A stretch of DNA of 64,000 nucleotides from Eledone cirrhosa (taxonomy: Eukaryota): assembly GCA_964016885.1 (NCBI GenBank), contig OZ024744.1, positions 86,800,001 through 86,864,000 on the forward strand. The letters are read 5' to 3'. Positions 2,757 to 63,960 of the stretch are shown here, piece by piece. The stretch's first letter is position 1. Every line of letters begins with the position of its first letter. The notes beneath the pieces are model-generated. The model did not search any database and was not told the origin of the DNA. It saw nothing but the letters and a program-made list of their open reading frames with translations. A program made the position numbers and the translations under genes.

Positions 2757-4853
2757 TTGTAGCACTGGCAGCAGAACGGGAGCATTCCCAGTTCTGTGAG
2801 CCGGGGCGTAGTGACGCTGATAAGAAAAGACGAGAACAAAAGGGACACATTAGACAATTTCAGGCCCATAACTCTGCTCAACACAGAGTTTAAGATTTTG
2901 GCCAGGGTGTTAGCGAAGAGGTTGGCGTTTGTTGTTGTGGATTTGGTTGGGGAGGCGCCAACTTGCGCAATCGCAACCAGGTCCATACACGACAACCACC
3001 ACCTGATGCGATACATCGTAGAGAGGGTAGGGTGTTAACCTGGCTTCGGTGGGGCTCTGATCAATTTAGATCAATCGAAAGCATTCGATAGGGTCGACCA
3101 TCGGTACCTGGAGGCTGTCCTCAAGGCGGCTGGCTTTGGCCCCGTCTTTAGAAGCTGGATCGCTGCAATGCACAGCGGCATCTGCCTGGTGGGCAAAATT
3201 AATGGCCACCTCTCGGAACCGTTTCAGGTCTCCCGATCGGTCCGTCAAGGGTGCCCTCTCTCCTCCGTGCTGTACGTATTGGCTCTCGAGCCTTTACTGC
3301 GGAAGCTGGAGCTGTTGCAGGGCATCCCGCTCGAACCGGGACGCGGAAAGGCTGTGTCGGCTTATACGGACGACATCACCGTGATGGTGTCGGACACCTC
3401 AGTAATCGAGGTGGTCGGCAACTTATTGGAGGAATATGAAAGGTTGACGGGAGTAAAACTTAACCCGGAAAAGTCGGTGGGCTTGCAACTCAGCACCTGG
3501 AGAGGCAAGTCCATGCCGTCCAACAGCGTCGTTAGGCGCTGGACGGACGGATCGGTAAAGTTGCTCGGGGTTTGGTTCGGGTCAGACCTCCAGGTGGATA
3601 AGAATTGGGACGAGGTGACGAACAGGGTAGCCAGTCTCACCTAGAGCGGCTCCTCTTCAAATTGTTGTGAGGTATCAGGTTGCACTGGTGAGGCGGTCCG
3701 TCTGCTGCCAGCACCCTCTACGTGGAGGGCTGGGCATCCCATGGCTAATGATGCGCAGACACGCGCTGAAGCTGCGGTATCTCCAGATATTCTGCCTAAA
3801 CGGTGAACAGATGTGGTCGCCGTTTGTCAGACGGGCCTTTCCGCAGCTAGTCTCTTTGACTGAGCTGCAGTCCTGGGTCAAGAAGAGACTGAGACTGGGT
3901 GACTGGCATCTGGAATGTTACCAGGCACTCACTGCCCTCTACCAGGTGGGCAATGCGGTCAGTGGAACTTCCACTCACGAGTTCTATAGAGGATTAGTGG
4001 TGGGGAGTGCGATGACGCACTCGGAGAGGCTTTGGGAGTTGACGAAGTGGACTTAACCAGTCTGTTCCGGAGGACTTTCGAGCCGGGGACGATGGATAAT
4101 TACCAAAAATCCCTGGGTTGGCAGTGCTACCGTTGGGGGGGGGGGGGGCACTGCCGGTTCGAGATAAACTCTACAGGCATGGAAGTGCTATCAGACGGAC
4201 CTGCCCGAGATGCACGCAGAGCGACGAAACCGTTCTGCACGCACTCGTCCAGTGTCCGTGTATTACTGACTTGTGGAGTTATGTCGAACAGCTGTTGTCG
4301 CGTGTAGAACGGATCCGGCTATCGACCGAGTCCATAGTGAAGATCGAGATGCCGCCTTCTTTAGGTCAGGAAGGGCAAGCAATTTTCCTGTCTGGTGGCA
4401 GTAGCGAAAGTGGTTCGATGGTGGACGAGGTTGAAAGGATTGAAGACAGACATTTTTCTCTTAGGCCAATCCCTCATCAACTTCTTCAAGTTTCACTTGG
4501 AAAGGAAGGTGAGGGTGGAGAGAGAAGTGTCCAGTACATTTACTGAAAGGTGGATGAATGTGGCGCGAATGGTCCGTTTGAGTGGGCCTACTCTGGTCAT
4601 GCGCCTGTAGGTCGGTAAATTTGAGGTGGAGAGGGGGGTGCTCTCGAAGCGTCGGGTCGGTCAGGATTGGTGGGGTACCTGAGCGAACCCTGGGTGGTCA
4701 TCCCCCCTATTGGGGAATTTTTCTTGTATTTTTCTTGTTACTTTGTTATTGTTATTCATATTGTTTACTCGATATTTCTGTAAAACCCCACTGTCCCAGT
4801 CTTTTGTATTGTCCCCTATATGTCGGCCCCTGTGGCCAATAAATGAAATCATT
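2757..4853 (+). mobile_element. 5'-truncated, frameshifted L1/Tx1-clade LINE (RT, C-terminal Zn finger, 3' UTR)
   Basis: NFRPITLLNTEFKILA, RQGCPLS, YTDDIT and CPRC..DETVLHALVQC across ORFs 2796-4610. Ends CCAATAAATGAAATCATT followed by (GTA)n. Confidence 0.93.
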
Positions 4854-14413: not shown

Positions 14414-14549
<136 letters not shown>

Positions 14550-14564
14550 GTTTTAATATAGATG

Positions 14565-14615
14565 AGATTCTACAGGACTAGAACTGTTTCATTCTTTAGA
14601 AATCATCAGGGATCT
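14565..14615 (-). ncRNA. Hammerhead ribozyme (mirror of 18742-18792)
   Basis: Same motif in the inverted pLTR. Confidence 0.65.
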
Positions 14616-15178
14616 GGGTATCAAAAAATAAATATGGTATTTATAGGTCTCTACAAGTGGTAGGAGAGGGTGGGGAGTGGGATGGGTGTAGGTCATTGGT
14701 TGATAGAAAAGGGAATTCATTAAAAGCTAATTCTACAAAGCTATAGTTTATTTTTATTAATTTTTGTTTTTAGAGTAACAAAGGCAGACAGAATTCTATA
14801 AACAGGTTCCGGATGGCATACCATTCCTTGACATTAAGTTTCTCTTGAGCTAACAGATGTCTATAAGATCAGTGGGGGGTCAGTCATGGTAGATAGAATT
14901 AAAGGAAAGGGAGATTCTTTAAAAGCTAAATTCATTAAGGTTCTACTAAGTGACAAAGGTTTAGAGAATTCTGTAGACAGATTCAAAATACTGAGTGCAT
15001 ATCTTACAATTATCTTCGAACTTCTCTTAAACTAATCAACTATGTGCCAAAAATCAACAGACACATTCACAAAAAAACACACTCACTCACACACTCGCGC
15101 GCAACCATAAACACACATACACATATACACACATAAAAACACACACACATATATAAATATATCTATATACAGACATAT

Positions 15179-15225
<47 letters not shown>

Positions 15226-15227
15226 TA

Positions 15228-15260
<33 letters not shown>

Positions 15261-15362
15261 TCATTTATACACATATAAATACACTCACACACATACATAC
15301 ATACACACAAATATACATGTGCATACATATACATATATATACACATAGATATACATATACAT

Positions 15363-15411
<49 letters not shown>

Positions 15412-15430
15412 TACACCATTCATACATATA

Positions 15431-17905: not shown

Positions 17906-18008
<103 letters not shown>

Positions 18009-18137
18009 ATGTATATATATATGTGTATATATATGTATATGTATGCACATGTATATTTGTGTGCATTTATGTATGTGTGTGAGTGTATTTATATGTGTAT
18101 AAATGAGTGTGTGTGTGTGTATATATATATATATGTA

Positions 18138-18168
<31 letters not shown>

Positions 18169-18741
18169 GTGTGTGTGGATATGTGTGTATATAGATATAT
18201 TTATATATGTGTGTGTGTTTTTATGTGTGTATATGTGTATGTGTGTTTATGGTTGCGCGCGAGTGTGTGAGTGAGTGTGTTTTTTTGTGAATGTGTCTGT
18301 TGATTTTTGGCATATAGTTGATTAGTTTAAGAGAAGTTCGAAGATAATTGTAAGATATGCACTCAGTATTTTGAATCTGTCTACAGAATTCTCTAAACCT
18401 TTGTCACTTAGTAGAACCTTAATGAATTTAGCTTTTAAAGAATCTCCCTTTCCTTTAATTCTATCTACCATGACTGACCCCCCACTGATCTTATAGACAT
18501 CTGTTAGCTTAAGAGAAACTTAATGACAAGGAATGGTATGCCATCCGGAACCTGTTTATAGAATTCTGTCTGCCTTTGTTACTCTAAAAACAAAAATTAA
18601 TAAAAATAAACTATAGCTTTGTAGAATTAGCTTTTAATGAATTCCCTTTTCTATCAACCAATGACCTACACCCATCCCGCTCCCCACCCTCTCCTACCAC
18701 TTGTAGAGACCTATAAATACCATATTTATTTTTTGATACTC

Positions 18742-18792
18742 AGATCCCTGATGATTTCTAAAGAATGAAACAGTTCTAGTCCTGTAGAATCT
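18742..18792 (+). ncRNA. Type-I hammerhead ribozyme
   Basis: agatcc CTGATGA t ttct aa agaa t GAAACAG ttctagtc CTGTA gaatct. Helix III ACAG/CTGT, GUA triplet, one mismatch in helix I. Confidence 0.65.
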
Positions 18793-18875
18793 CATCTATA
18801 TTAAAACTTTTATACTCTGCAATGTATTGAGTACCTTACTTACTGTGGTTACCTCCGATTCAACCCGGAATAACC

Positions 18876-28812: not shown

Positions 28813-30423
28813 TGTTGTTATACTTTGGGAGGGTCATGTTGCCAATAAGAAACACACGCACCAGTTGCTTTCACTCCAATTTATTATAAATTTAAAAATT
28901 TATAAATTTCCGGTTGGTTGGTTTGTTCCATAAGCGGACGGTTGTTCATATATTGTCAAAGTTCTTTCGTCACATTTTCTGTGACCTCTTCAGTGACTGG
29001 GGATTCTTTTCTTTGTGTTGTGCCTCTCCTGTGTTCTATCCTACGCCATCTTGTTTTTGTGTGTGTTGTGTGCTTAGTTTGCGCATGTGTTACATCCGGG
29101 TGTCTCTGTGTGTTTTTATTTGTTTATTTATTTGTTTATTTTTATGTTACTGGTTGGTTGTTTGTTCTATGTGTGTGTGTGTTTTCATTTTACCCCTAAT
29201 TGTAAGTTGTGATGTTGCTATTCCATTCATGTTTTCTATTTAATTTTGGTTGGAGTTCATTTATGTGTTTATTGCCTCTGTGATTTGTCTAAACATTGCG
29301 TCTTTTCTGTGTGTAGATTCTATTTTTATTTCTATGATCTCTAATTTACCTTTATGTTCTATTTTAGCATGTTGGTGGAGTATTGATGATTCTTTTTTTA
29401 TCTTGAAGTTCTCGCCAGTGTTCATTTAACCGTTCTCCTATACTACGAGCCTATGTACACTATATTCTTATCTTTACATTGTCCTTCAGTACATCTTATG
29501 CTATATACTACATTTCTAGTTTTACAGTTAATATGGGGGCTTAGTTTACAGATTATGCATTTCTTATCTATACAGGGAGGTTTTTGAAAATGGTATGTAT
29601 TGCTAATAAGTGTTTTATGGAGGTACCTGGTCTTTCTACTATCTTAATATTAAGTTTATGTTTATCTAGGCCCTTCTAATTGTGTAAGCTAATTCACCTC
29701 TAGGGTTTGTATTGATGAACATTACACTCTGGTATTTATTGCTATCATATCATGAGTTTATTCTATTAGCCTTATTACTAGTTCTTTCTATTCTATTCCA
29801 AAATTTGCTCCTATACAAGGGGCATGTCCTATTTGTATCATTTTTCCCCATTTTTTTCCCATTTGGTTCTGGATCCTCTATATACTCTGATTTTATCTCT
29901 CTGATTGTAACCAGAGAACTGCATACGATGGATGAAGTGTTTTATGTGTCACTCTAGTTCTTTGGGGTTGCACATGCGGGACACGTTTCTCATCACCCGT
30001 ACTAAATCCGCAATCAGTATGTTGATTTTCGTGTGATCCGAAACAGCTGAGTTTCGGTGGATCAGATATTTGGAAATCATGGGTTTGGCATAATGGGAAT
30101 AAACAAATAAAAACACACACAGACACCCGGATGTAACACATGCGTAAACTAAGCACACAACACACACAAAAACAAGATGGCGTAGGACAGAACAAAGGAG
30201 AGGCACAAAACAAAGAAAAGAATCCCCTGTCACTGAAGATGTCACAGAATGTGTGGCAAAAGAACTTTGACAATACATGAACAACCGTCCGGTTATGGAA
30301 TCAACAAACCAACCGGAAATTTATAAATTCTTAAATTTATAAATTTAATTTATAATAAATTGGAATGAAAGCAACTGGTCCGTGTGTTTCTTATTGGCAA
30401 CATGACCCTCCCAAAGCATAACA

Positions 30424-30425
<2 letters not shown>
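28813..30425 (-). mobile_element. Penelope-like element with inverted pLTRs (28813-29128 and 30098-30425); HHRs at 28955-28997 (-) and 30228-30272 (+)
   Basis: Minus-strand decayed ORF KINILIADLVRVMRNVSRMC.. homologous to 25139-25970. Termini are reverse complements. Confidence 0.9.
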
Positions 30426-30467
<42 letters not shown>

Positions 30468-30476
<9 letters not shown>

Positions 30477-30896
30477 TAAAAAAATAATGAATAAAACAAT
30501 GAAACAGTTCCTTATATTAAACAAAAAAAGTTCATTATTTAACGATCGTTTCTGGGATATATATGTGTTAGAATTGGCATGTATATTTAACAGATCTATG
30601 TACAAAATTATACAAAATTATACAAACTATCAAAATTAAATATACATACCAACTCATATATATGCCGTCTTCAGAAATAATGATTATTTCTGAAGACGGC
30701 ATATATATGAGTTGGTATGTATATTTAATTTTGATAGTTTGTATAATTTTGTATAATTTTGTACATAGATCTGTTAAATATACATGCCAATTCTAACACA
30801 TATATATCCCAGAAACGATCGTTAAATAATGAACTTTTTTTGTTTAATATAAGGAACTGTTTCATTGTTTTATTCATTATTTTTTAAATATTTTAT
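30468..30896. repeat. Near-perfect palindrome, 214-bp arms, 1-nt centre (30682)
   Basis: 30468-30681 is the reverse complement of 30683-30896, with one mismatch near the outer end. Confidence 0.95.
30683..30830 (+). ncRNA. Hammerhead ribozyme with ~115-nt helix II; mirror at 30534-30681 (-)
   Basis: ATTATTT CTGAAGA [long hairpin] GAAAC GATC GTT AAATAAT. 7-bp helix I, palindromic GATC loop. Confidence 0.75.
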
Positions 30897-31027
30897 CTTG
30901 ACTCTGTATTCCGTTTATCTTTCACCGAAAGTGATTTTTCATTGCATCTCTTCTTTCCATGATATCCGGATTACATTGAGTTCTTCATACGGATTGGACA
31001 CTACCGTAAACTCTTGGTAGATTTATC

Positions 31028-31106
<79 letters not shown>

Positions 31107-37705: not shown

Positions 37706-38829
37706 TATAAAGGTTCTCTACCTTCCACCCAACACCTCCCCTATCCTACAGCCCACTCTACATTCCCCCCAACACCACCCCTATACTGCAACCCACGGAC
37801 CAGTAGGTTATATAAAGGTTCTCTACCTTCCACCCAACACCACCCCTATCCTACAGCCCACGGACCAGTAGGTGATATAAAGGTTCTCTACCTTCCACCC
37901 AACACCACCCCTATCCTGCAGCCCACGGACCAGTAGGTGATATAAAGGTTCTCTACCTTCCACCCAACACCTCCCCTATCCTACAGCCCACTCTACCTTC
38001 CACCCAACACCACCCCTATCCTACAGCCCACGGACCAGTAGGTTATATAAAGGTTCTCTACCTTCCACCCAACACCACCCCTATCCTACAGCCCACTCTA
38101 CATTCCACCCAACACCACCCCTATCCTGCAGCCCACAGACCAGTAGGTTATATAAAGGTTCTCTACCTTCCACCCAACACCACCCCTATCCTACAGCCCA
38201 CGGACCAGTAGGTGATATAAAGGTTCTCTACCTTCCACCCAACACCACCCCTATCCTACAGCCCACTCTACATTCCACCCAACACCACCCCTATCCTGCA
38301 GCCCACAGACCAGTAGGTTATATAAAGGTTCTCTACCTTCCACCCAACACCACCCCTATCCTACAGCCCACGGACCAGTAGGTTATATAAAGGTTCTCTA
38401 CCTTCCACCCAACACCACCCCTATCCTACAGCCCACTCTACATTCCACCCAACACCACCCCTATCCTGCAGCCCACAGACCAGTAGGTTATATAAAGGTT
38501 CTCTACCTTCCACCCAACACCACCCCTATCCTACAGCCCACGGACCAGTAGGTTATATAAAGGTTCTCTACCTTCCACCCAACACCACCCCTATCCTACA
38601 GCCCACTCTACATTCCACCCAACACCACCCCTATCCTGCAGCCCACAGACCAGTAGGTTATATAAAGGTTCTCTACCTTCCACCCAACACCACCCCTATC
38701 CTACAGCCCACGGACCAGTAGGTGATATAAAGGTTCTCTACCTTCCACCCAACACCACCCCTATCCTACAGCCCACTCTACATTCCACCCAACACCACCC
38801 CTATCCTACAGCCCACGGACCAGTAGGTT
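37706..38829 (+). repeat. Minisatellite of 65-bp and 40-bp units with a 170-bp higher-order period, derived from the transposase
   Basis: Unit encodes IKVLYLPPNTTPILQPTDQ. Identical context recurs at 38151, 38321, 38491 and 38661. Confidence 0.95.
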
Positions 38830-46284: not shown

Positions 46285-46334
46285 TTCGTTTCTGAATTTG
46301 TTATTGACAACATGACCCTCCCAAAGTATAACAA

Positions 46335-46382
<48 letters not shown>

Positions 46383-46435
46383 TAATAAGGTAATGAATTC
46401 TTTTACAATGGAATTAAAATACCCACTGAGCCGTG

Positions 46436-47186
46436 TATAAACTAATATGTATGTGATGAAACACAGATACCAACACATCTGTATATATATTGCAAAAGAA
46501 AATTTAGCCAGATTGAAGTATACTAATTATTATACTACAGTTTGTCCATATCGATTTAAAATAATAAATCAATAAAGACGAACTGCATTGCCAAAAGGCA
46601 ATGATGTTTAGACACACTTAAACTTCAAAATCAAACCTGTTCCGTAGATAAGTTTAAACTTTAAAATCCAAATATGTTTCGAGATAAATAAGTGTAGGAA
46701 TATCATGTCCTGCTCTCCAATTGTAAAAGAATTCATTACCTTATTAATATAACTGCTCCTAGTCTGAGCTGAAAGCCGCCTCATATATACGATTGTTATT
46801 TCTAGCAGTACGGTTATGAGACTAGCTAGATACTGTTAAACCATGTGCGTCACGCAGTCTTTTAAATTATTTAGAAGTGAAGCATATCAATTTGTCCCTG
46901 CATGTTTACTGAGGAGAGCAGGACATGATATTCCTACACTTATTTATCTCGAAACATATTTGGATTTTAAAGTTTAAACTTATCTACGGAACAGGTTTGA
47001 TTTTGAAGTTTAAGTGTGTCTAAACATCATAGCCTTTTGGCAATGCAGTTCGTCTTTATTGATTTATTATTTTAAATCGATATGGACAAACTGTAGTATA
47101 ATAATTAGTATACTTCAATCTGGCTAAATTTTCTTTTGCAATATATATACAGATGTGTTGGTATCTGTGTTTCATCACATACATAT

Positions 47187-47195
<9 letters not shown>
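46436..47195. repeat. Inverted repeat, 283-bp arms, 194-nt spacer (probable PLE terminus)
   Basis: 46436-46718 is the reverse complement of 46913-47195 with one mismatch. Degenerate CTGAGGA gag..ctc GAAAC at the inner edge of the right arm. Confidence 0.9.
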
Positions 47196-48353: not shown

Positions 48354-51300
48354 GATTTCTTTATTAACCACAAGGGTTTACATAAAGTAGACATTAAGGA
48401 CAGTGCAGGACAATGCAGGACGGTACAAATGGGCATTTCTGCGTGTAAAAAAACAAAAACAGAGGATGTAACAAAAAATAACAATGAAAATAACAATGAA
48501 AAATTCCCCAATAGGGGGCAGACTTCGCAGGGACATTTGCGGAGAAAGCCCATTAAAAGGCCACAGTGACCCTGACCACCAGGGCAAGTGCCCTCTCTCA
48601 GTTTTCCACCTTTAATTTACAGACACATACTCAGAGTAGGCCCATTCACACGGGCCATACTTGCTTCTCTCACCCATATTTCAACAAAATGCTGGGAAGA
48701 GAGCACTTACCTCTCTACCCTGATTTTCCTTTTCAAATGAAATTTGAAAAAAGTTAATCAGGGCATCACCGAAGAGGTAAGTGCTCGTCTTCAGCCCTTT
48801 CAAACGTGTCCACCATACTATCTTTTTCGCCATGGCCACCAGACAGATAAAAACTGCCTGCCCTTCCCGGCTAAAGGAAGAGAGCGGGGCAATCCTCACG
48901 ATGGACTCAGCTGATAGCCGGATCCGTCCTACACGTGACAGCAGGTGTTCGACATAAACCCACAAGTCAGCAATGCTCAGACACTGGACGAGTGCGTGCA
49001 GGATGGTTTCGTCGCCCTGCGCGCATCTCGGACATGCCCGGCTGACGGTACCTCCATGCCTGTAGAGTTTATCCCGAACTGGCAAAGCTCCTCGGTGGCA
49101 CTGCCAGGCCAGGGATTTCTGGAAGTTGTCCATAGGCCCCGGCCCGAAAGTCCTTCCGAAGAGATTGGCTAGTTGATTTTCGTCGACGCCTAGAGTTTCT
49201 CCAAGTACGTCGTCGCTCTTCCCCTCCACTAATCCTCTATAGAACGCCAAGGCGGAGTTTCCACCGATCACATTGCCCGATTGGTCGAGGGATGTGAGCG
49301 CCTGAAGACATTCCAGTCTCCAAGCGCTCCCTCTCGGTCTTCGCTTGACCAAGGGCTGCAGCTCCGTCAAGGAGACGAGCTAGGGAAAGACGTGTCTAGC
49401 AAACGGCGAACACACCTGATCACCGTCGAGGAAGAGGTGGAGATGTCGTAGCCTGAGCGCGTGCCTGCGCATCATCAGCCACGGCATGCCCAGCCCTCCA
49501 CGTAGCGGGTGGTGACTGCAGATGGACCGCCTGACCATCGGAACGCGTCCCTTCCACAAAAAGCGAAAGAGCAAACAGTCCAGCGCAGTCAGGCAAGGCT
49601 TAGGACAAGGTACGACGGTCAGGCGGTAGTGGATGGCGGGCGCGATGTACGCGTTAGCCACCTCCGCACGACCTTTCAGGGATAGCTTCCTCTCCGCCCA
49701 TTTCTGTGTGAGAGAAGCCACCCTGCTCGTCACCTCGTCCCAGTTTTTGTCCGTCTGGAGGTCCGGACCGAACCAGACCACTAGCAATTTAACCGGTCCG
49801 TTCGTCCAGCGCCCGACGACGCTGTTGGACGGCATGGACCTGACTCTCCAGGTGCCGAGCTGCAGGCCCACTGACTTTTCCTGGTTGATCATTGCTCCTG
49901 TCACCGCTTCGTATTCTCTTAGTGTAGTGCCGATCGCCTCGATGTGTTTGGCGTTCGACACCACTACGGTGACATCGTCCGCATATGCTGACACGGATCT
50001 TCCGCATCCTAGTTCGCGCGGGACACCCCTCAACGTCTCCAGTTTGTGAAGTAATGGCTCGAGAGTCAATACGTACAAGAGGGACGAGAGGGGACATCCT
50101 TGGCGGACCGAGTGTATTATGTTGAACGGTTCCGAAAGGTGACCGTTCACTCTCACCACAGAGCAGATGTCGCTGTGCATGGCAGCGATCCAGCCTCTGA
50201 AGGCGGGCCCAAAGCCAGCAGCCCTCAGGACTGCAGCTAGGTAACGATGGTCGACCCTATCGAAAGCTTTCGACTGATCTAAATTGATAAAGGACCCACC
50301 CGTGCCAGGTTCCCTAGCTACCCTCTCTACGATGTATCGCATGAGGTGGAGGTTGTCGTGGATGGATCTGTCGGGAATGGCGCATGTCTGCGCCTCTCCC
50401 ACCAGACCACCAACGACAAACGCCAACCTCTTTCCTAACACCTTGGCCAAAATCTGAAATTATCTATGTTATCCCCTTTGTTCGGATCCTTTCTCAGCAG
50501 CGCCACAGAGCTGGGAATTCTCCCGTTCTGTTGACAGTTGCAGTAGACGTCCGCCAAGAGGCATCCGAACAAGTCTGGCATCTGTACGTAAAGTTCATAG
50601 GGCAGACCATCCCAACCAGGCGAATTACCCCTTGTGCAGCCAGTCATTGCCTCCCGTACTTCAGCGGCTGTTATCGACTTTTCGCAACACTCTGCCTCAG
50701 TGGCCGAGAGCCGCGGCAGCCCGTCGAGGTAGACACTAAAGTCCCTCCGTCGATTCGGCCCGCCGCTGCCCCCGAACAGCTGGGCGAAGTGTCGCTGGAA
50801 AGCTTCACACATTTTCCCGGGATCGAGTAGCATGCGCCCATGGTGGTCCACCAAAGACCGGATCGTGGCTTTGTCGCCACGACGCGCCTCCGCCACTCGG
50901 GCCCATTGAACGGCTTCCGTCCCCTCGTGTCTGAGATCACGCACCCTAGCTCTGAAAGCTTGCCCGTCTACGCTGGTCACGTCCAGCACCACCAACTTAC
51001 CTTCTGGATCCAGGAAGATGGCTGGTATGCCGAGATCCAACCTCTCAGAAAAAGCACAGCAACTCCTCCCCCGATCCCCGACGACTGGGAGATGCGTACG
51101 CATCGTAGACGCCGAAGATCGGTGCGAAGGCCCATGCTTCGGAGATTCTGGTCTCGCTGATGGCCACTACATCTATGTTTATTGACCTGAGGTCGTTGAG
51201 CATGTGGCCCTGCTTCCATGACGACCCCAAGCCACGCGCATTTATGCTGCCTATTCTGAGTGAGGTCATGTTGAAATGGAGTGGAAAAGATGAGAAAGAC

Positions 51301-53456
51301 CAGTTACCTTACTTCTCGTAGAGGAAGGACGGTTTCTCCATCCTTTTCACTGCTTGTGGCCTCCTCAGGAAGGATGTCCTTATAAATCCTCCTGGAGAGT
51401 GCTTGTCGGAAGTCTCCGATGTCTTTAGGGAATTTTTGTTTTAGTGTCATGTACGTTTTCTGTGTAATGCGAGTGATTTGTATGTGTGGAGGTGTGAACT
51501 TTTGGGTTGTTGTGTAGTCTTTTTCTGTGCTGCAGGTGTTGTGTTGGATGTAGTGTATTAATTGGTTGTTGTTCAAATTTAATGCTGTGTAGTGTGTATC
51601 GTTTTGGTTGTTTTGTTTTGTTTGCATTTGTTTTGGGTTTGCTTCTGTTTCGCTTTTGGGGTTGGTGATGGTGGTGTTGGGGTTAATGATGGTGATGGTG
51701 TTGGTGTTTGGGGTGATGGGGTTGGTGATGCTGGTGTGGATGGTGGCATATCTGTCCTAACTCTTTTTGTTTGATAGTTTATTTGTTTCCCTCTGTACTT
51801 TGTTTTTGGAGGGGGAAGGAAGAGAATTTTTTTCTTTTTTGGTTTCTTTTTTTCTTTTTTCCTGATACCGTTTCCCACTCCTCGTCGTCACAATCTGTCT
51901 CCAGTGTGATAGGCCGAGGAGTGGAAAATCCTCCACAGGCGTTAGTTTTGGTTGTGGCGTGGTGGACGGTGTAGGCGCTGGTGCTAGTTCTCGTGCGTTG
52001 GGTGGTGGTGGTGTTGGTTTTGCTACTGTTGCTAGGGTTGTTGCTGTTACAGTTGCTTCTGTTGTTGCTGCTACAGTTGTTGCTGTCATCTCTGCTGCTG
52101 GTGGTGTTGATGGTTGAGTCACTGGGGTGGGTAGGAGAGGTAGCCTCAACCTTTTAGCCTGAGGGCAGAAAGCCCTTAGGTGGGTTCCTTCATCACAAAC
52201 GACACACCTAGGCCTTCTGCCCTCGACGATTACGGTGAGGTGGCTGCCGTCAGTGAGGTCTATTACCTCTGAGATCTCCTCAATGCTTTTTTGGTCCGCT
52301 TGGATCAGGAGCTCCATCCCAGATCCGGACCAGTTCTGCTTTTCTTTCGCTATTTCGATTATCTTGGTGTTGGCTTCGATGCCGGCGAGGACGGCAGCTA
52401 TTAGCCAGGGAATTTCGATGGCCGGTGGAACGTGGGTGACCCTGATCTTTACGAGTCTCTGGCCACAATAGCTTGGGACGAGTGTGAAGTCGTCACTTCT
52501 TAATGGGGCCATGGAGTGCTTTCTAGCCTCCTGTGGTGTTTCAAAGAACAAGTCCACGGTTCAATAATTTTGCCCACGTCTTATGTGGTTTTTTTTTTTG
52601 CCCACACATGTCCCAAAGCTTTTTGGATTTAGTACTCGGATGCCCGTTTCACTCGGCGCGATTTTATATTAATTGTTCGATAAGACACGGTGCATAGACG
52701 CCGATGCTCCATTTTTTTAGGTGTGTAGGGGCGGGGGAGGGGGGGGGGGCGGAGGCTGACCCTGTACCCATATTTTTTTACCATTTTGTTGGCTTCTTCT
52801 AATTCCTCCTGAGTTACCTGAAATGCTTCGCACTGTTTTGCTACTCTGGCAAAACTCAGGGTGGTTTTCTTAATGTCATTGTTGCTGTTGTTGTTATCGT
52901 TATTATTGTTAATATTAATTTTAGTTTCAGTTGTGGTTTTGGTGGCTTCAGTGGTGTTCGGTGTGGAAGAGTTCATTTTGGTTGAATTCATTTCGATATC
53001 ACGAGTTAATTTTTTTTTCTTTTGTTTCTGTTGTCGCGGTGGCGCTGGAGGTGGTGGAGGCTTTAACACCTGCAGTCATTGGTAATGGTGGGAAATGAAT
53101 GTCTGCCTGAGACAAATTTAAAATATTGCTACTGCTTATATTTTTAGTGTTGGAAAACGTAGTAATATTTACAATGGTGGTGTCGGTAAGAGGAGTTAAT
53201 TTGTGAGGAAGGCTGTCAGCTTCGTAGTGGCTGTTAGTCATCCATGTTTTTTTCAAAGAAAGTTTTCTTTGATAATTATAAAATTTTAAATTTTGGGCTC
53301 AAGGGCCCAATCTTTTTGAGTGTCCTTTTCGGAAAACAATGTATGTTCACTTATATACAGTTAACAATAAAATTTTCCATAAATAGCAATTTTAACAACT
53401 GAAAATAACAAACCTTTACTGAGCTCACGATGATACGATTTACTACGTAGGTCGCC
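48354..53456 (-). mobile_element. Full-length decayed Tx1-clade LINE A (ORF1 ~51304-53256; ORF2 ~48620-51269 with an internal deletion)
   Basis: ORF1 zinc knuckle CVVCDEGTHLRAFC. APE start IGSINARGL..ISETR. RT RQGCPLS and YADDVT. C-terminal CPRC..HALVQC. (AAT)n on both sides. Confidence 0.95.
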
Positions 53457-53495
<39 letters not shown>

Positions 53496-53497
<2 letters not shown>

Positions 53498-56400
53498 TTT
53501 CTTTATTGGCCACAAGGGCTGACATCAGGAAAAATATTACAGACGGCACAGGACGGTACAGGACGGTACGATGTGGGTTTTGTGCGTGTAAAGATTTATA
53601 TTATTTATATAATAAAAGGAAAAAGAAGGACATAGAAACATATATATATAAACAATAAAAATGAAAATTGAAACAATGAAAAATTCCCCAATAGGGGGGA
53701 AGCCTCCGAAGGTTACTCGTGGCAAAAACCACACAAAAGACCAGGGCCACCCTGACCATCAGGGCAAGTGCCCTCTCTCAATTTTTCCATTTCTCAAACT
53801 ACAGGCGTATATTCAGAGCGGTCCCGTTCACTGGGACCATTATCGCTACATTCACCCACCTTTCAACAAACTTGCTAGAAAGCAGCACTTGCCTCTCCAC
53901 CCTGATTTTTCTCTTCACATGAAACTTGAAAAAGTTAATCAGGGATTCGCCGGAGAGGAAAGTGTCTGTCTTTAACCCTTTTAACCTTGTCCACCACACA
54001 ATCGCTTTCGCCATGGCCACCAGGCAGTTGAAAACCGCCTGCCCTTCCTCTTCGAGGGAAGATGGCGAGACCATCTGCACAATGGTCTCAGTCGATAACC
54101 GGATCAGTCCTACACGCGACAGCAACTGTTCGACATAAATCCACAAGTCAGCAATGCTCGGACACTGAACGAGTGCGTGGACGACGGTTTTGTCGCTCTG
54201 CGCGCATCTCGGACAGACTCGGCTGACGGCACTTCCGGGTCTGCAGATTTTATCTCGAACCGGCAACGCTCCCCGGTAGCACTGCCAGGCCAAGGATTTT
54301 TGGAAGTTATCCATAGGCCCCGGGCTGAAAGTTCTCCGGAATAGAGCAAACAGCTGATCTTCGACGCCCAGGATCTCTCCGAGTATGTCGTCGTTCTTTC
54401 CCTCCACTAGTCCTCTATAGAACACCGAGGTGGATGTTCCACCGATACTGGTACCAAGCTGGCAGAGGGCAGTGAGCGCTTGGAGACATTCCAGTTTCCA
54501 AGCGCTATCCCTCGGTCTTTTCCTGGCCCAGGACTGCAGCTCCGTCAAGGATGCGAGCTGTGGGAAAACGTACCTGGCGAACGGCGACCACACGTGTTCA
54601 CCGTCAAGGAAGCACCAGAGATGTCGCAGCCTCAGCGCATGTTTGCAAATCATCAGCCATGGCCAGTTCTCCACGCAACGGGTGTGAGTTGCGCCGGGGC
54701 AAGGGACGACGGTGAGGCGGTAGCAGATGACGGATGCGATGTACGCATTCGCCACCTCAGCCAATTCTGGGTGAGGGAGGCCACCTTTATCGTCACCTCG
54801 TTCCAGTTTTTCTCCATCTGGAGGTCCGGTCCGAGCCAGACCCCGAGCAATTTAACCGGTCCGTCCGTCCGACGCCCCACGACCCTGTCGGACGGCATGG
54901 ACTTTCCTCGCCAAGTGCCGAGCTGCAAGCCCACGGACTTTTCCTGGTTTATCTTTGCTCCTGTCACTGCTTCGTATTCCTTGAGAGCGGTGCCGAACAT
55001 CTGGACTTGTCTGGTGCTCGACACCACCAAGGTGACGTCGTCGGCGTGAGCCGCCTCGGATTTCCCGTATCCTAGTTCGCATAGGACGCCCCTCATCGCC
55101 CTCAGTTTGTGCAGTAACGGCTCGAGAGCCAATACGTACAAGAGGGACGAGAGGGGACAACCCTGGCGGACTGAGCGCATGATGCTGAACGGCTGCGACA
55201 GGTGACCGTTCACCCTCACAACTGAGCAGATGTCACTGTACATCGCTGCGATCCAACCCCTGAAAACGGGCCCGAAACCGGCTGCCTCGAGGACCGCCGC
55301 GAGGTACCGATGGTCGACCCTATCGAATGCTTTGGATTGATCCAAGTTGGTCAGGGCCGCATCCGTGCCAGGTTCCTTAACCGCCCTCTCTATGATGTAT
55401 GGCATGAAGTGGAGGTTGTCGTGTATGGATCTGTCCGGAATGGCGCATGTCTGCGCCCCACCCACCAGACCCCTGACGACAAGGGCCAACCTCGTTGCTA
55501 ACACGTTGGCCAAGATCTTGAACTCTGCGTTTAGCAGAGTTATGGGCCTGAAATTATCGATAACATCCCCCTTGTTCGGGTCTTTTCTCAACAGCGCCAT
55601 CGCTCCCCGGCTCTCAAAACTAGGATTGCCCCCGTTCTGCTGCCAGTTGCAGTAGACGTCTGCCAAGAGGTCACCGAACAAGTCTGTCATAAATGCATAA
55701 AGCTCGTAGGTCAGACCATCCAAACCTGGCGATTTACCCCTTGTGTATTTAGCCATCGCTTCCCGTATTTCACCGGCTGTTATTGGCTTTTCGCAACACT
55801 GTGCTGCGGTCGTCGAGAGCCGAGGCAGTCCGTCGAGGTATGCACTGAAGTCATGTCCCGATCCGGGCCGCCGCTGATCCTGAACAGTTCAGCAAAGTAC
55901 TGCTGAAAAGCTTTACACATCTGCTCGGGTTCGAGCAACACGCACCCGTTTTAGTCAGACAAAGACCGAATTGTGTTTTTATTGCCACGTCGCGCCTCTG
56001 CCACCCAGGCCCATTGGACGGCTTTTGTCCCCTCGTGTTTCAGAGCACGCGCTCTAGCTCTGACAACGCAGCCTTCGTCTTTTGCGTTGAAGATTTGGTC
56101 GAGTGTCAATCTCGCCGCAAGCATGTCGGTTGCGATGCCTGTTCTAAACGCCTCTTCTAGCCTTCTGACTAGCTCTCCCTCTACTCTATTTTCCGCTATC
56201 ACTAGTCCTTTGCTAAACCTTATCGACTCTACTTTAATTGCCCATTTCAGGGCGAACCACCACCTGTTGTTGACGACTACTCCCGTTAACGCCCGCTTAA
56301 CTAATACGCTAATCCTGTCTCTGTAGGCTTTCCGCGCCGGGAAAGACGCGTTCAGCTTCCAGTAACCGGGCTCTTGTCTATGAAGTCTGTCAATGTCGAT

Positions 56401-61680: not shown

Positions 61681-61868
61681 TGTTTCTACTTTTGGCACAA
61701 GGCCAGCAATTATCCCAGTACATTACTGGTACTTTATTTTATCGACCCCGTAAGGATGAAAGGCAAAGTAAACCTCGGCGGGATTTGAACTCAGATCGTA
61801 AAGGGACGTAACTATGCTGGAAAGCATGGCGTCCGACCTTCTACCGATACTGCCAATCCACCGCCCTT
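61681..61868 (-). mobile_element. SINE inserted in the R4/Dong-like ORF, 16-bp TSD
   Basis: TGCTGAGATAAATAAT at 61665-61680 and 61869-61884. Confidence 0.95.
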
Positions 61869-61914
61869 TGCTGAGATAAATAATACCTGGAACAGAGATA
61901 CGGCCACTGAGGAG

Positions 61915-63960
61915 ATGAATACTGACGGGCTAGGACAAGATTTGGTTGATATCCTAAACTTAGTAGTAGATGAATTGAACAATGATAGTGGGAGACCTAT
62001 GAACCTAAGATTTGTAGACAGGAAAAAGTTAAAAGAAACAACAGCTAAGGTAAACAAAGTCATCCCATACCTTGAGGCGAGGAGCCTTCACCAGTGCAAC
62101 AATATCCTCAAAGCAACAGCAAATACGGTGAGGAAACTACTTGGTATAAAAGCGAGAGGAAACAACAGACAAGAAATAGCAGAGCCTTGGTGGAAGAAAC
62201 GACTGAGTGGCCAAATCGGGGAAATGAGAAATGACATTGGAAAGCTTGAGTCCCTACTGAATGGGACACTAAAAAACATAGACACTAAAAATAGACTGGA
62301 AATAAAGTACAAAACTAGGAGGAAAAAGCTAAATATTATCATAGAGGAACTGAAGCAACGCATTGTAGCAAAGAGTGCAAAAATCAGGCGATACGAGAAC
62401 AGTGTCAGTCAGTATAGACAGAACCGCATGTTCGACAAGAACCAGAAGATGCTGTTTGGACAGCTTGAAGGGAAAGAAAGAGGCAACGACTTGATCCCTG
62501 AGGCGGAACAAACTAAAACATTCTGGAGAGGAATATGGGAGCAGGATGTTAAACATAATGACCAGGCAGTGTGGATTGAGACAGTACAGAAGGAGATTAG
62601 TGAACAGGCACACGAACAAACTGATTTGAGTATCACAGTTAAAACTCTTAAGGGGCAGGCCAAAAAACTAACCAACTGGAAATCACCAGGCCCAGATGGT
62701 GTGCAGGGGTATTGGATTAAAAATATAACATCCCTCCACCCGAAACTGACAACCATGTTCAATGACTGCTTGAGGTCAGGTGAGGTACCAGAGTGGTTGA
62801 CAAAAGGTACCACAGTTCTGATAATGAAAGACCGAATCAAGGGTAATGATGTTACCAACTATAGACCTATCACATGTCTGTCCGTAATGTGGAAACTGTT
62901 GACAAGCATTATGTCTGAGGAAATCTACCATCACCTCCACACAAACAACTTGTTACCGGACGAACAGAAAGGATGCCGAAAGAAGTCACGTGGTACAAAG
63001 GACCAGTTACTTATTGATAAGATGGTAATGAGGAATTGCAAGAGGAGACACACTGGTCTTGCCATGGGATGGATAGACTACAAAAAGGCATTCGACATGG
63101 TGCCTCATTCTTGGATCACCAAAAGCCTGGAGATCTTCAAGGTGGCAGATAACATCAGACAGTTGTTGGGCAAAAGTATGAAGTCCTGGGAAACAGAGTT
63201 AACATCAACTGGAGAATCCTTGGGAAGCGTGAAGATCAAGAGAGGTATCTTCCAGGGAGATAGTCTGTCCCCTCTGTTGTTTGTCCTTGCCCTGATGCCC
63301 CTGACCAGTGTACTGCGAAAAGTGAGAGCAGGATACAGGTTGGGAAAGGGAGGGCTTACCATCAATCACCTCCTCTTCATGGACGATCTTAAGCTCTTCG
63401 GAAAGAGTGAGAAGGAGTTGGATGTGCTTGTTGACACTGTCCGTATTTTCAGCAATGATATATGTATGCAATTTGGTATTAGTAAGTGTGGAGTCATTGT
63501 GATGAAGAGGGGTAAGTTGAGCAGAAGTAACGGAATCCAGGTACCAACAGGTGAGATGATAAAGGAAATTGACACTGAAGAAGGATATAAGTATTTGGGC
63601 GTTCTGGAGGCTGATGACATCAAGAACAAAAAAATGAAGGAATTGATAAGAACTGAATACATTCGGAGAGTAAGGAGCGTATTGAAGTCACATCTGAACA
63701 GCAGAAATGCCATAAGCGCAGTAAATTCCCGAGCTGTGTCTATTATTAGGTACAGTGCGGGAATTCTGAGATGGAATGTTGCTGAACAAAAAGAAATGGA
63801 TAGGAAGACTAGGAAGCTATTGATTATCTACAACATGTTCCACAAGAGGAATGATGTCGATAGACTCTACTTAAGGAGATCTGAAGGTGGAAGAGGTCTT
63901 ATCAGTATAGAGGACTGTGTTCAGATGGAGAAAAACAACCTACACAAATACGTGAACTGA
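61915..63960 (+). CDS. Reverse transcriptase region of the R4/Dong-like element (interrupted upstream, probable premature stop at 63958)
   Basis: NWKSPGPDGV, NYRPITCL, EQKGC, WIDYKKAFDMVPHSW, GIFQGDSLSP, HLLFMDD, YKYLG, GGRGL. Confidence 0.9.
   Translation: MNTDGLGQDLVDILNLVVDELNNDSGRPMNLRFVDRKKLKETTAKVNKVIPYLEARSLHQCNNILKATANTVRKLLGIKARGNNRQEIAEPWWKKRLSGQIGEMRNDIGKLESLLNGTLKNIDTKNRLEIKYKTRRKKLNIIIEELKQRIVAKSAKIRRYENSVSQYRQNRMFDKNQKMLFGQLEGKERGNDLIPEAEQTKTFWRGIWEQDVKHNDQAVWIETVQKEISEQAHEQTDLSITVKTLKGQAKKLTNWKSPGPDGVQGYWIKNITSLHPKLTTMFNDCLRSGEVPEWLTKGTTVLIMKDRIKGNDVTNYRPITCLSVMWKLLTSIMSEEIYHHLHTNNLLPDEQKGCRKKSRGTKDQLLIDKMVMRNCKRRHTGLAMGWIDYKKAFDMVPHSWITKSLEIFKVADNIRQLLGKSMKSWETELTSTGESLGSVKIKRGIFQGDSLSPLLFVLALMPLTSVLRKVRAGYRLGKGGLTINHLLFMDDLKLFGKSEKELDVLVDTVRIFSNDICMQFGISKCGVIVMKRGKLSRSNGIQVPTGEMIKEIDTEEGYKYLGVLEADDIKNKKMKELIRTEYIRRVRSVLKSHLNSRNAISAVNSRAVSIIRYSAGILRWNVAEQKEMDRKTRKLLIIYNMFHKRNDVDRLYLRRSEGGRGLISIEDCVQMEKNNLHKYVN

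Follow-up and report, generated by a model that had tools for sequence, protein, structure and literature searches.

A palindrome within a TA microsatellite

The window (the whole 64,000-nt stretch of Eledone cirrhosa DNA analysed here) contains a 429-bp palindrome at 30468..30896; re-deriving the arms gave the same coordinates as the first-pass annotation. The arms pair perfectly over 203 bp (30479-30681 with 30683-30885) around a lone central G at 30682; beyond them there is one mismatch, followed by pairing out to 30468 and 30896. One correction is that the feature is larger than the palindrome, as element sequence runs rightward to about 31031. ATTATTT-CTGAAGA (30683-30696) and GAAAC-GATC-GTT-AAATAAT (30812-30830), reported earlier as the strands of a hammerhead ribozyme, are both present in the right arm. 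Their mirror copy lies on the minus strand, so either strand encodes a hammerhead and its antisense, as had been claimed. Exactly 115 nt separate CUGAAGA from GAAA, in agreement with the helix II of about 115 nt proposed before. The following features were assigned:

30424..30470, no strand: (TA)n microsatellite, left target; arms of the family end in (TA)n
30468..30681, minus strand: left arm, a pseudo-LTR (pLTR) without tail, ending at site A (element position +214)
30534..30681, minus strand: mirror type I hammerhead, with cleavage predicted between 30541 and 30540
30682..30682, no strand: junction base G between the arms; junctions differ among loci
30683..31031, plus strand: right arm, a pLTR with tail, ending at site B (about +349)
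30683..30689, plus strand: helix I, 5' strand; A30683 is the modal arm 5' end
30690..30696, plus strand: core CUGAAGA
30697..30811, plus strand: 115-nt helix II with a C.A mismatch, GG/CC, a C.C mismatch, and stems of 9 bp and 11-15 bp
30715..30720, plus strand: splice-donor-like GTATGT at +33, predicted to be paired inside helix II; present in most copies of subfamilies A and B
30812..30823, plus strand: GAAA, 2-bp helix III and GUU triplet, predicted cut after 30823
30824..30833, plus strand: helix I, 3' strand, 7 bp paired in the right arm
30897..31031, plus strand: 135-nt tail, bounded by end sites A and B, that leads into the 5' UTR and ORF in tandem copies
31031..31073, no strand: (TA)n microsatellite, right target

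Other repeats were observed in the window. A second head-to-head pair lies at 46381-47195, with 283-nt perfect arms 194 nt apart and (TA)n on both sides; about 55 extra nt are present on the left only, and a CTGAGGA...GAAAC motif with a 35-nt spacer is found at 46909. This pair is probably another Penelope-like family. The same short sequence adjoins both pLTR pairs in (TA)n (30398-30425 and 46308-46335) and is probably the end of a third repeat family. A further inverted insertion is possibly represented by two 865-nt inverted arms separated by 2.5 kb (14549-15413 and 17944-18808; 93% complementary). ORF fragments of LINE-type RT and zf-RVT occur at 3039-3644, 48681-55888 and 61789-63960, and a tandem array at 37706-38829 has a 170-nt higher-order unit made of 40- and 65-nt subunits. 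No host-gene domains were detected in the nine window ORFs scanned.

A young Penelope-like family

A search of the species' own 3.0-Gb genome with one arm gave 63 matches (40 scored of 876 candidates), mostly 99-100% identical. Non-palindromic members, which the first-pass annotation had expected to exist, were among them, and in these the arm forms the 3' terminus of a long element. In four loci the order is direct (3'UTR-hammerhead-A-B-5'UTR-ATG), and these direct tandem arrangements identify the arm as a pLTR; inverted arms are present in many loci of the family. The unit from hammerhead to hammerhead is 5.5-6.8 kb, with a microsatellite-rich 3' UTR. The parent ORF (811 aa) comprises RT with GIY-YIG at the C terminus, the RT motifs and IVY...YIG being recognised by eye. 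Pfam gave no match to this query ORF, and its homologs matched RVT_1 and GIY-YIG only below the cut-off; among the ORFs first scanned, 17 of 18 were without a Pfam match. There were 114 homologs (best E 1.7e-122), one of them from Argonauta, and the PDB sequence search returned no match. The endonuclease part gave 150 scored matches, every one of them 98-100% identical, which indicates that the family is young. A DNA search with the tail only returned nothing, probably through the skipping of common words. At L081:3398-5830, a long Asn/Thr/Lys-rich stretch lies between the RT and the endonuclease and recalls the N-rich inserts of rotifer Penelopes.

A single ORF with RT and C-terminal GIY-YIG, together with partial tandem or inverted pLTRs, characterises Penelope-like elements (PLEs) of the EN+ type. 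In RT phylogenies, PLEs are the sister group of telomerase. The palindrome is a solo head-to-head pLTR pair of a young retroelement of this kind, inserted in (TA)n. Non-LTR retrozymes are non-coding tandem repeats that each carry a hammerhead, whereas this pair is inverted and its parent is coding. The asymmetric ends and the RT-element parent ruled out a MITE or a miRNA, and the Rfam miRNA matches, far below the cut-off, reflect a generic likeness to hairpins.

The ORF motifs SDKTG, CNCRNKANC, CRLC and CNH correspond to DKT, the CxCX5C linker, CxxC and CxH. These motifs, with CxxC and CxH flanking E/N residues, and a (TA)n target are marks of the Hydra clade in Craig et al. 2021 (PMC8557442), whose elements (Hydra-1_Obim included) also share the C-terminal GIY-YIG, the inverted 5' copy, the one-end tail and the type I hammerhead. 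Hydra-clade elements are generally shorter than 3 kb, a tendency rather than a diagnostic trait, and have an RWK motif and no CCHH finger (PMC8557442). By contrast, the unit here is longer (5.5-6.8 kb, including the microsatellite-rich 3' UTR) and its ORF reads RWR; the homolog P0005 has RWK. The hammerhead listed for Hydra-1_oBim also differs in sequence from the one described here (PMC8557442). Given RWR in place of RWK and the unit size, the element is placed putatively in the Hydra clade, by motif alone. A Hydra-like sister family, family C (L177-L212), was also found and has numerous open frames, each about 745 aa long.

The hammerhead and its extended helix II

Each arm has CUGANGA, GAAA, A15.1-U16.1, an NUH triplet and three helices, as in type I hammerheads. 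Helix I must be corrected to 10 bp in intact elements, shortened to 7 bp in the right arm. The 2 bp of helix III lie within a self-complementary 10-mer (30814-30823; duplex -11.8 kcal/mol), so cleavage as a dimer is predicted. The CUGANGA/GAAA core, whose conservation the earlier reading had made decisive, is essentially invariant in subfamilies A and B. The triplet stays NUH (GUU or GUA in subfamilies A and B, AUA in family C). The canonical G10.1-C11.1 pair is absent: the positions are C.A in subfamilies A and B, and A-U, A.A or G-C in family C. In the Hydra rows of File S2 of PMC8557442, T.T occupies 10.1/11.1 in 14 of 26 and U the cleavage position in 10 of 26 by our own count, so neither the missing pair nor the GUU triplet is unusual in this clade.

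Self-folding of the sequence between the core strands was confirmed: the 148-nt motif reached -41.3 kcal/mol (z = -5.8), and 0 of 200 shuffles were as good. The distal loop of helix II (30697..30811) holds a 10-nt tandem unit. The motif is a hammerhead-shaped RNA with a very long helix II. A further correction is that the MFE structure of a single arm is not the hammerhead, as TTTCTG pairs with CAGAAA. The hammerhead fold lies 5.8 kcal/mol above the MFE in an RNA starting at 30683 and 2.3 kcal/mol above it with intact upstream sequence. Like the MFE, the RNAalifold consensus pairs the core with GAAA.

Covariation was analysed in an alignment of 17 copies chosen by hand from subfamilies A, A2 and B. 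Hammerhead pairs were paired in 96.4% of 507 cells, and all slid controls were lower (at most 59%). Helix I changes from U-A to C-G between subfamilies. The covariation suggested for helix II was present at its base (a G-C/G-U/A-U series and two A-U to G-C changes), while the distal stem showed wobble changes only. Three doubly changed pairs were observed against 2.6 in shuffled alignments, so independent covariation events are few. We regard the comparison with family C as stronger evidence for the hammerhead than these double changes within the family. Family C, at about 45% aa identity, shares the helix II base (N-GG-C-AUA...UAU-C-CC-N), but its helix II takes up only 20-31 nt, which indicates that the helix II of 115 nt (subfamily A) or 99 nt (subfamily B) is a distal extension of a conserved foot. 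Other type I hammerheads with helix II of 61-62, 49 and 14 nt were observed in the genome (L020:2972, L038:5041, L120:35, L004, L010, L036, L042 and L048), most of these families having unpaired 10.1/11.1. The long helix II thus lies at the far end of a range.

Hammerheads with large insertions in a different helix are known (Clec2). From core to GAAA, the Hydra rows of File S2 do not exceed about 26 nt and the longest stretch in the whole table is about 54 nt (PMC8557442), compared to 99-115 nt here; helix II is about four times longer than that of the closest published relatives. Minimal or dimeric PLE hammerheads and non-LTR retrozymes (PMC4209133; bioRxiv 10.64898/2026.07.22.740005) are likewise of type I, with a short palindromic helix III and predicted dimer cleavage, but their helix II is far shorter (6-8 bp), and retrozymes form tandem monomers rather than inverted pairs or parts of autonomous elements. 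Titles and abstract openings in the literature gave no PLE hammerhead with a helix II of about 100 nt; Lunse et al. 2017, possibly dealing with variant helix II forms, may bear on this claim. The expectation that standard searches would miss such a helix was borne out, as Rfam gave no hammerhead match, either at gathering score in the whole window or at E<=10 in 30400-31100.

From its intact core, palindromic helix III and compensatory changes between subfamilies, the type I hammerhead looks genuine, and self-cleavage is predicted. It might instead be a decayed relic, its long hairpin retained only for RT binding, exonuclease block or splice-site masking. The missing G10.1-C11.1 pair and the competing core-pairing fold, which is both the MFE and the RNAalifold consensus, would fit a relic, as would the poor cleavage of known PLE hammerheads in vitro (PMC4209133) and the protein required by the anole PLE hammerhead (PMC11167929). 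However, subfamilies A and B show essentially no variation in core, GAAA and helix III, covariation is seen in helix I, the triplet is kept NUH, and unpaired 10.1/11.1 positions are common among published Hydra-clade hammerheads (PMC8557442). We consider a relic distinctly unlikely.

Origin of the mirror image

Head-to-head cores no more than 60 nt apart were searched genome-wide and found at 529 loci (control, 0). Junction sequence and spacing vary between loci, with long fillers or copied patches at some. Junction statistics were obtained from 30 of 50 listed loci, all on contig C1, and two loci with identical context were dropped (n=28). In 23 of the 28 junctions, one arm ended at +214 (site A) and the other near +349 (site B); none was A+A or B+B, and the other five had one arm broken or unresolved. 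Arm ends nearly always enter (TA)n or a related dinucleotide run. At the opposite side, 54 of 56 arms reach to 10 nt or less upstream of CUGA, 20 of them exactly 7 (the A of ATTATTT), a sharp boundary that was seen even though the junction pattern tolerated 60 nt between arms. Arms differed by a mean of 0.96 events within a locus vs. 4.29 between loci (24 loci; 4 broken ones dropped), and in 12 of the 24 an identical arm was found at another locus. The older subfamily B forms the same palindromes, its query having spanned a junction and hence being biased towards them. The overlap at a junction is frequently a self-complementary AT/TA. An extra G before +1, a cap signature, was enriched (23/56 non-C cases), and is confounded by duplicate loci and microhomology. 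Exact motif counts (core 1881, upstream 3599) cover different subfamilies and are therefore uninformative on a junction hotspot.

Perfect inverted repeats are a recognised class of assembly and library artefact, which would favour reading the palindrome as a chimera. Against this stand the non-identical junctions of the 529 loci and end sites that are fixed and asymmetric. Older subfamilies show the structure too, and one contig from another study, of a second organism, has a loose end of the junction type (a search for the further subfamily that it hints at gave 0). The recurrence, the older subfamily B and this loose end exclude an artefact for practical purposes.

Five copies (L012, L033, L103, L105 and L112) of different subfamilies have a SINE of about 200 nt with a tRNA-like B box at the same helix I position, with target duplications of about 16-20 nt; this site looks like a site-specific SINE insertion hotspot. 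A related repeat is present at 554-917 of the window. The five arms preceded by the SINE 3' end had been taken for template jumps at the RNA 5' end and were dropped as evidence, since they are SINE insertions with target duplications.

In intact elements of subfamilies A and B, the arm boundary is the A of an initiator-like TCA(+1), equivalent to A30683, which by its motif would be the transcription start. In family C, 24 of the 48 arms examined share a conserved TCACT that lies 87-91 nt upstream of the core; this sequence has been called initiator-like in rotifer pLTRs (PMC3846280). Among nine truncated family C arms that were not selected by the junction pattern, four start at +2/+3 of TCACT and the remaining five start further in or are ambiguous. 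As these four arms start within TCACT, 88 nt upstream of the core, the boundary tracks the initiator-like motif and not helix I. In the same family, 139 junctions lie within 50 nt of the core, away from the initiator. An AATAAA found 8 nt upstream of +1 in subfamilies A and B would be an alternative source of the RNA end.

PLEs have been described with pLTRs inverted head to head and with a tail on one end (PMC8557442; PMC3846280). In the anole PLE, RT priming occurs at two internal sites bounding the tail, on both DNA strands and with uncleaved RNA, and a dimer is predicted (PMC11167929). By analogy, an origin from one RNA and two primers is likely here. We think it probable that the locus is a young PLE pLTR pair in a TA microsatellite, each arm with a predicted type I hammerhead of extended helix II, derived from one short uncleaved RNA that was reverse-transcribed twice. 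The pLTR promoter would start the RNA at TCA(+1), coincident with helix I. RNA starting there, with a 7-bp helix I and a 2-bp helix III, would stay uncut, while read-through RNA, with a 10-bp helix I and dimerised via the palindromic helix III, would be cut after GUU. A dimeric RT-endonuclease would then nick both (TA)n strands, with priming at site A from one nick and at site B from the second. Both cDNAs would reach the RNA 5' end and be joined by 1-2 nt of AT microhomology or a short filler, giving the mirror image, with the potential for dsRNA as a by-product of integration. Copying one RNA from both sites would explain the A/B rule, the uncut cleavage site, the boundary and why the arms agree. 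Such agreement would also follow from fold-back synthesis on one cDNA, from two RNAs produced in the same burst or from later conversion. Poseidon of Anolis carolinensis (Frangieh et al. 2024, PMC11167929) is similar in its two RT start sites bounding the tail, its AT-rich targets, the cutting and extension of both strands, and a pLTR hammerhead that is dispensable for insertion. It differs in its shorter tail (30-40 nt vs. 135 nt here) and in an ORF that starts in stem II rather than about 500 nt past the core, and the available part of that paper gives no account of head-to-head pairs. Titles and abstract openings in the literature held no one-RNA, two-primer origin of head-to-head pLTRs.

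The main rival to copying from two primers is snap-back, in which one cDNA, or an antisense RNA, primes itself. Near-identity of the arms within a locus and the frequent self-complementary AT/TA overlaps would agree with it, and rotifer Penelope head-to-head palindromes have been so interpreted (PMC3846280). Yet simple snap-back does not account for a second arm that terminates at the other fixed site, A, and meets (TA)n there (23/28), and junctions with long fillers or copied patches resemble the joining of two ends; we therefore judge it unlikely. Much less probable still is a function for the palindrome itself. The first-pass annotation had proposed a switch that lets the RNA fold either as a self-cleaving hammerhead or as a 214-bp dsRNA, a substrate for ADAR or Dicer. 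The hammerhead shape and long helix II were supported, as were the conservation of the motif with covariation in the family and its absence from Rfam matches, but a designed switch found no support: the mirror image is a known PLE integration product (PMC8557442; PMC3846280) that recurs at 529 loci with junction sequence and spacing not conserved. Each strand does encode a hammerhead and its antisense, and 529 perfect hairpin loci could be read as support. However, the whole palindrome folds at -315 kcal/mol compared to about -36 kcal/mol for the hammerhead fold, and the antisense arm is transcribed first, which makes the hammerhead very unlikely in read-through RNA. The hammerhead would be possible only in RNA starting at the centre or from non-palindromic copies, and read-through RNA is a plausible candidate substrate for ADAR or Dicer.

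The GTATGT at +33 is a putative donor of a 5' UTR intron. Its nearest conserved acceptor candidate is an invariant CATAG ending at 30768, and the intron would span only 42-54 nt; donor and acceptor arose by chance in 181 of 2000 shuffles. A search gave 0 copies lacking the candidate intron, and there were none among 21 short-spacer copies, which is expected without an intron and also if PLEs retain it. Contigs of four sequence sets, of unrecorded kind, likewise had no joint at this candidate, an outcome uninformative on splicing, cleavage or editing. In family C, a GGTAYGT, equivalent to the donor motif, lies 42-44 nt after TCACT and the acceptor candidate lies downstream of the hammerhead, so that the hammerhead may lie within an intron. 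Drosophila virilis Penelope similarly has an internal initiator-type promoter with a splice donor about 46 nt past the start, and its intron overlaps and remodels the hammerhead, ending at helix I (PMC2377424; PMC4209133), whereas the donor predicted here, at +33, is inside helix II. A tentative reading, which we consider more likely wrong than right, is that promoter, splice donor and ribozyme overlap in one hairpin, with a 5' UTR intron starting inside helix II. The transcript would have three fates: splicing to mRNA, in which the hammerhead is remodelled or absent; self-cleavage, for read-through RNA; or use as an intact template. The intact RNA would be copied twice, from sites A and B, into a head-to-head one-tailed insertion. 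If true, a single model would cover the inverted pLTRs, the tail and the intron retention of PLEs, and the genome would offer hundreds of natural snapshots of it.

The hammerheads, inverted pLTRs and tails of PLEs are already known. What is new is a family-wide helix II of 99-115 nt that descriptor and Rfam searches miss, which suggests that PLE hammerheads are undercounted. The 529 near-perfect hairpins of about 200 bp would be candidate sources of dsRNA if transcribed through. They also form a large and young set of minimal insertions, and their strict A/B pairing and sharp 5' boundary make the PLE integration mechanism testable.
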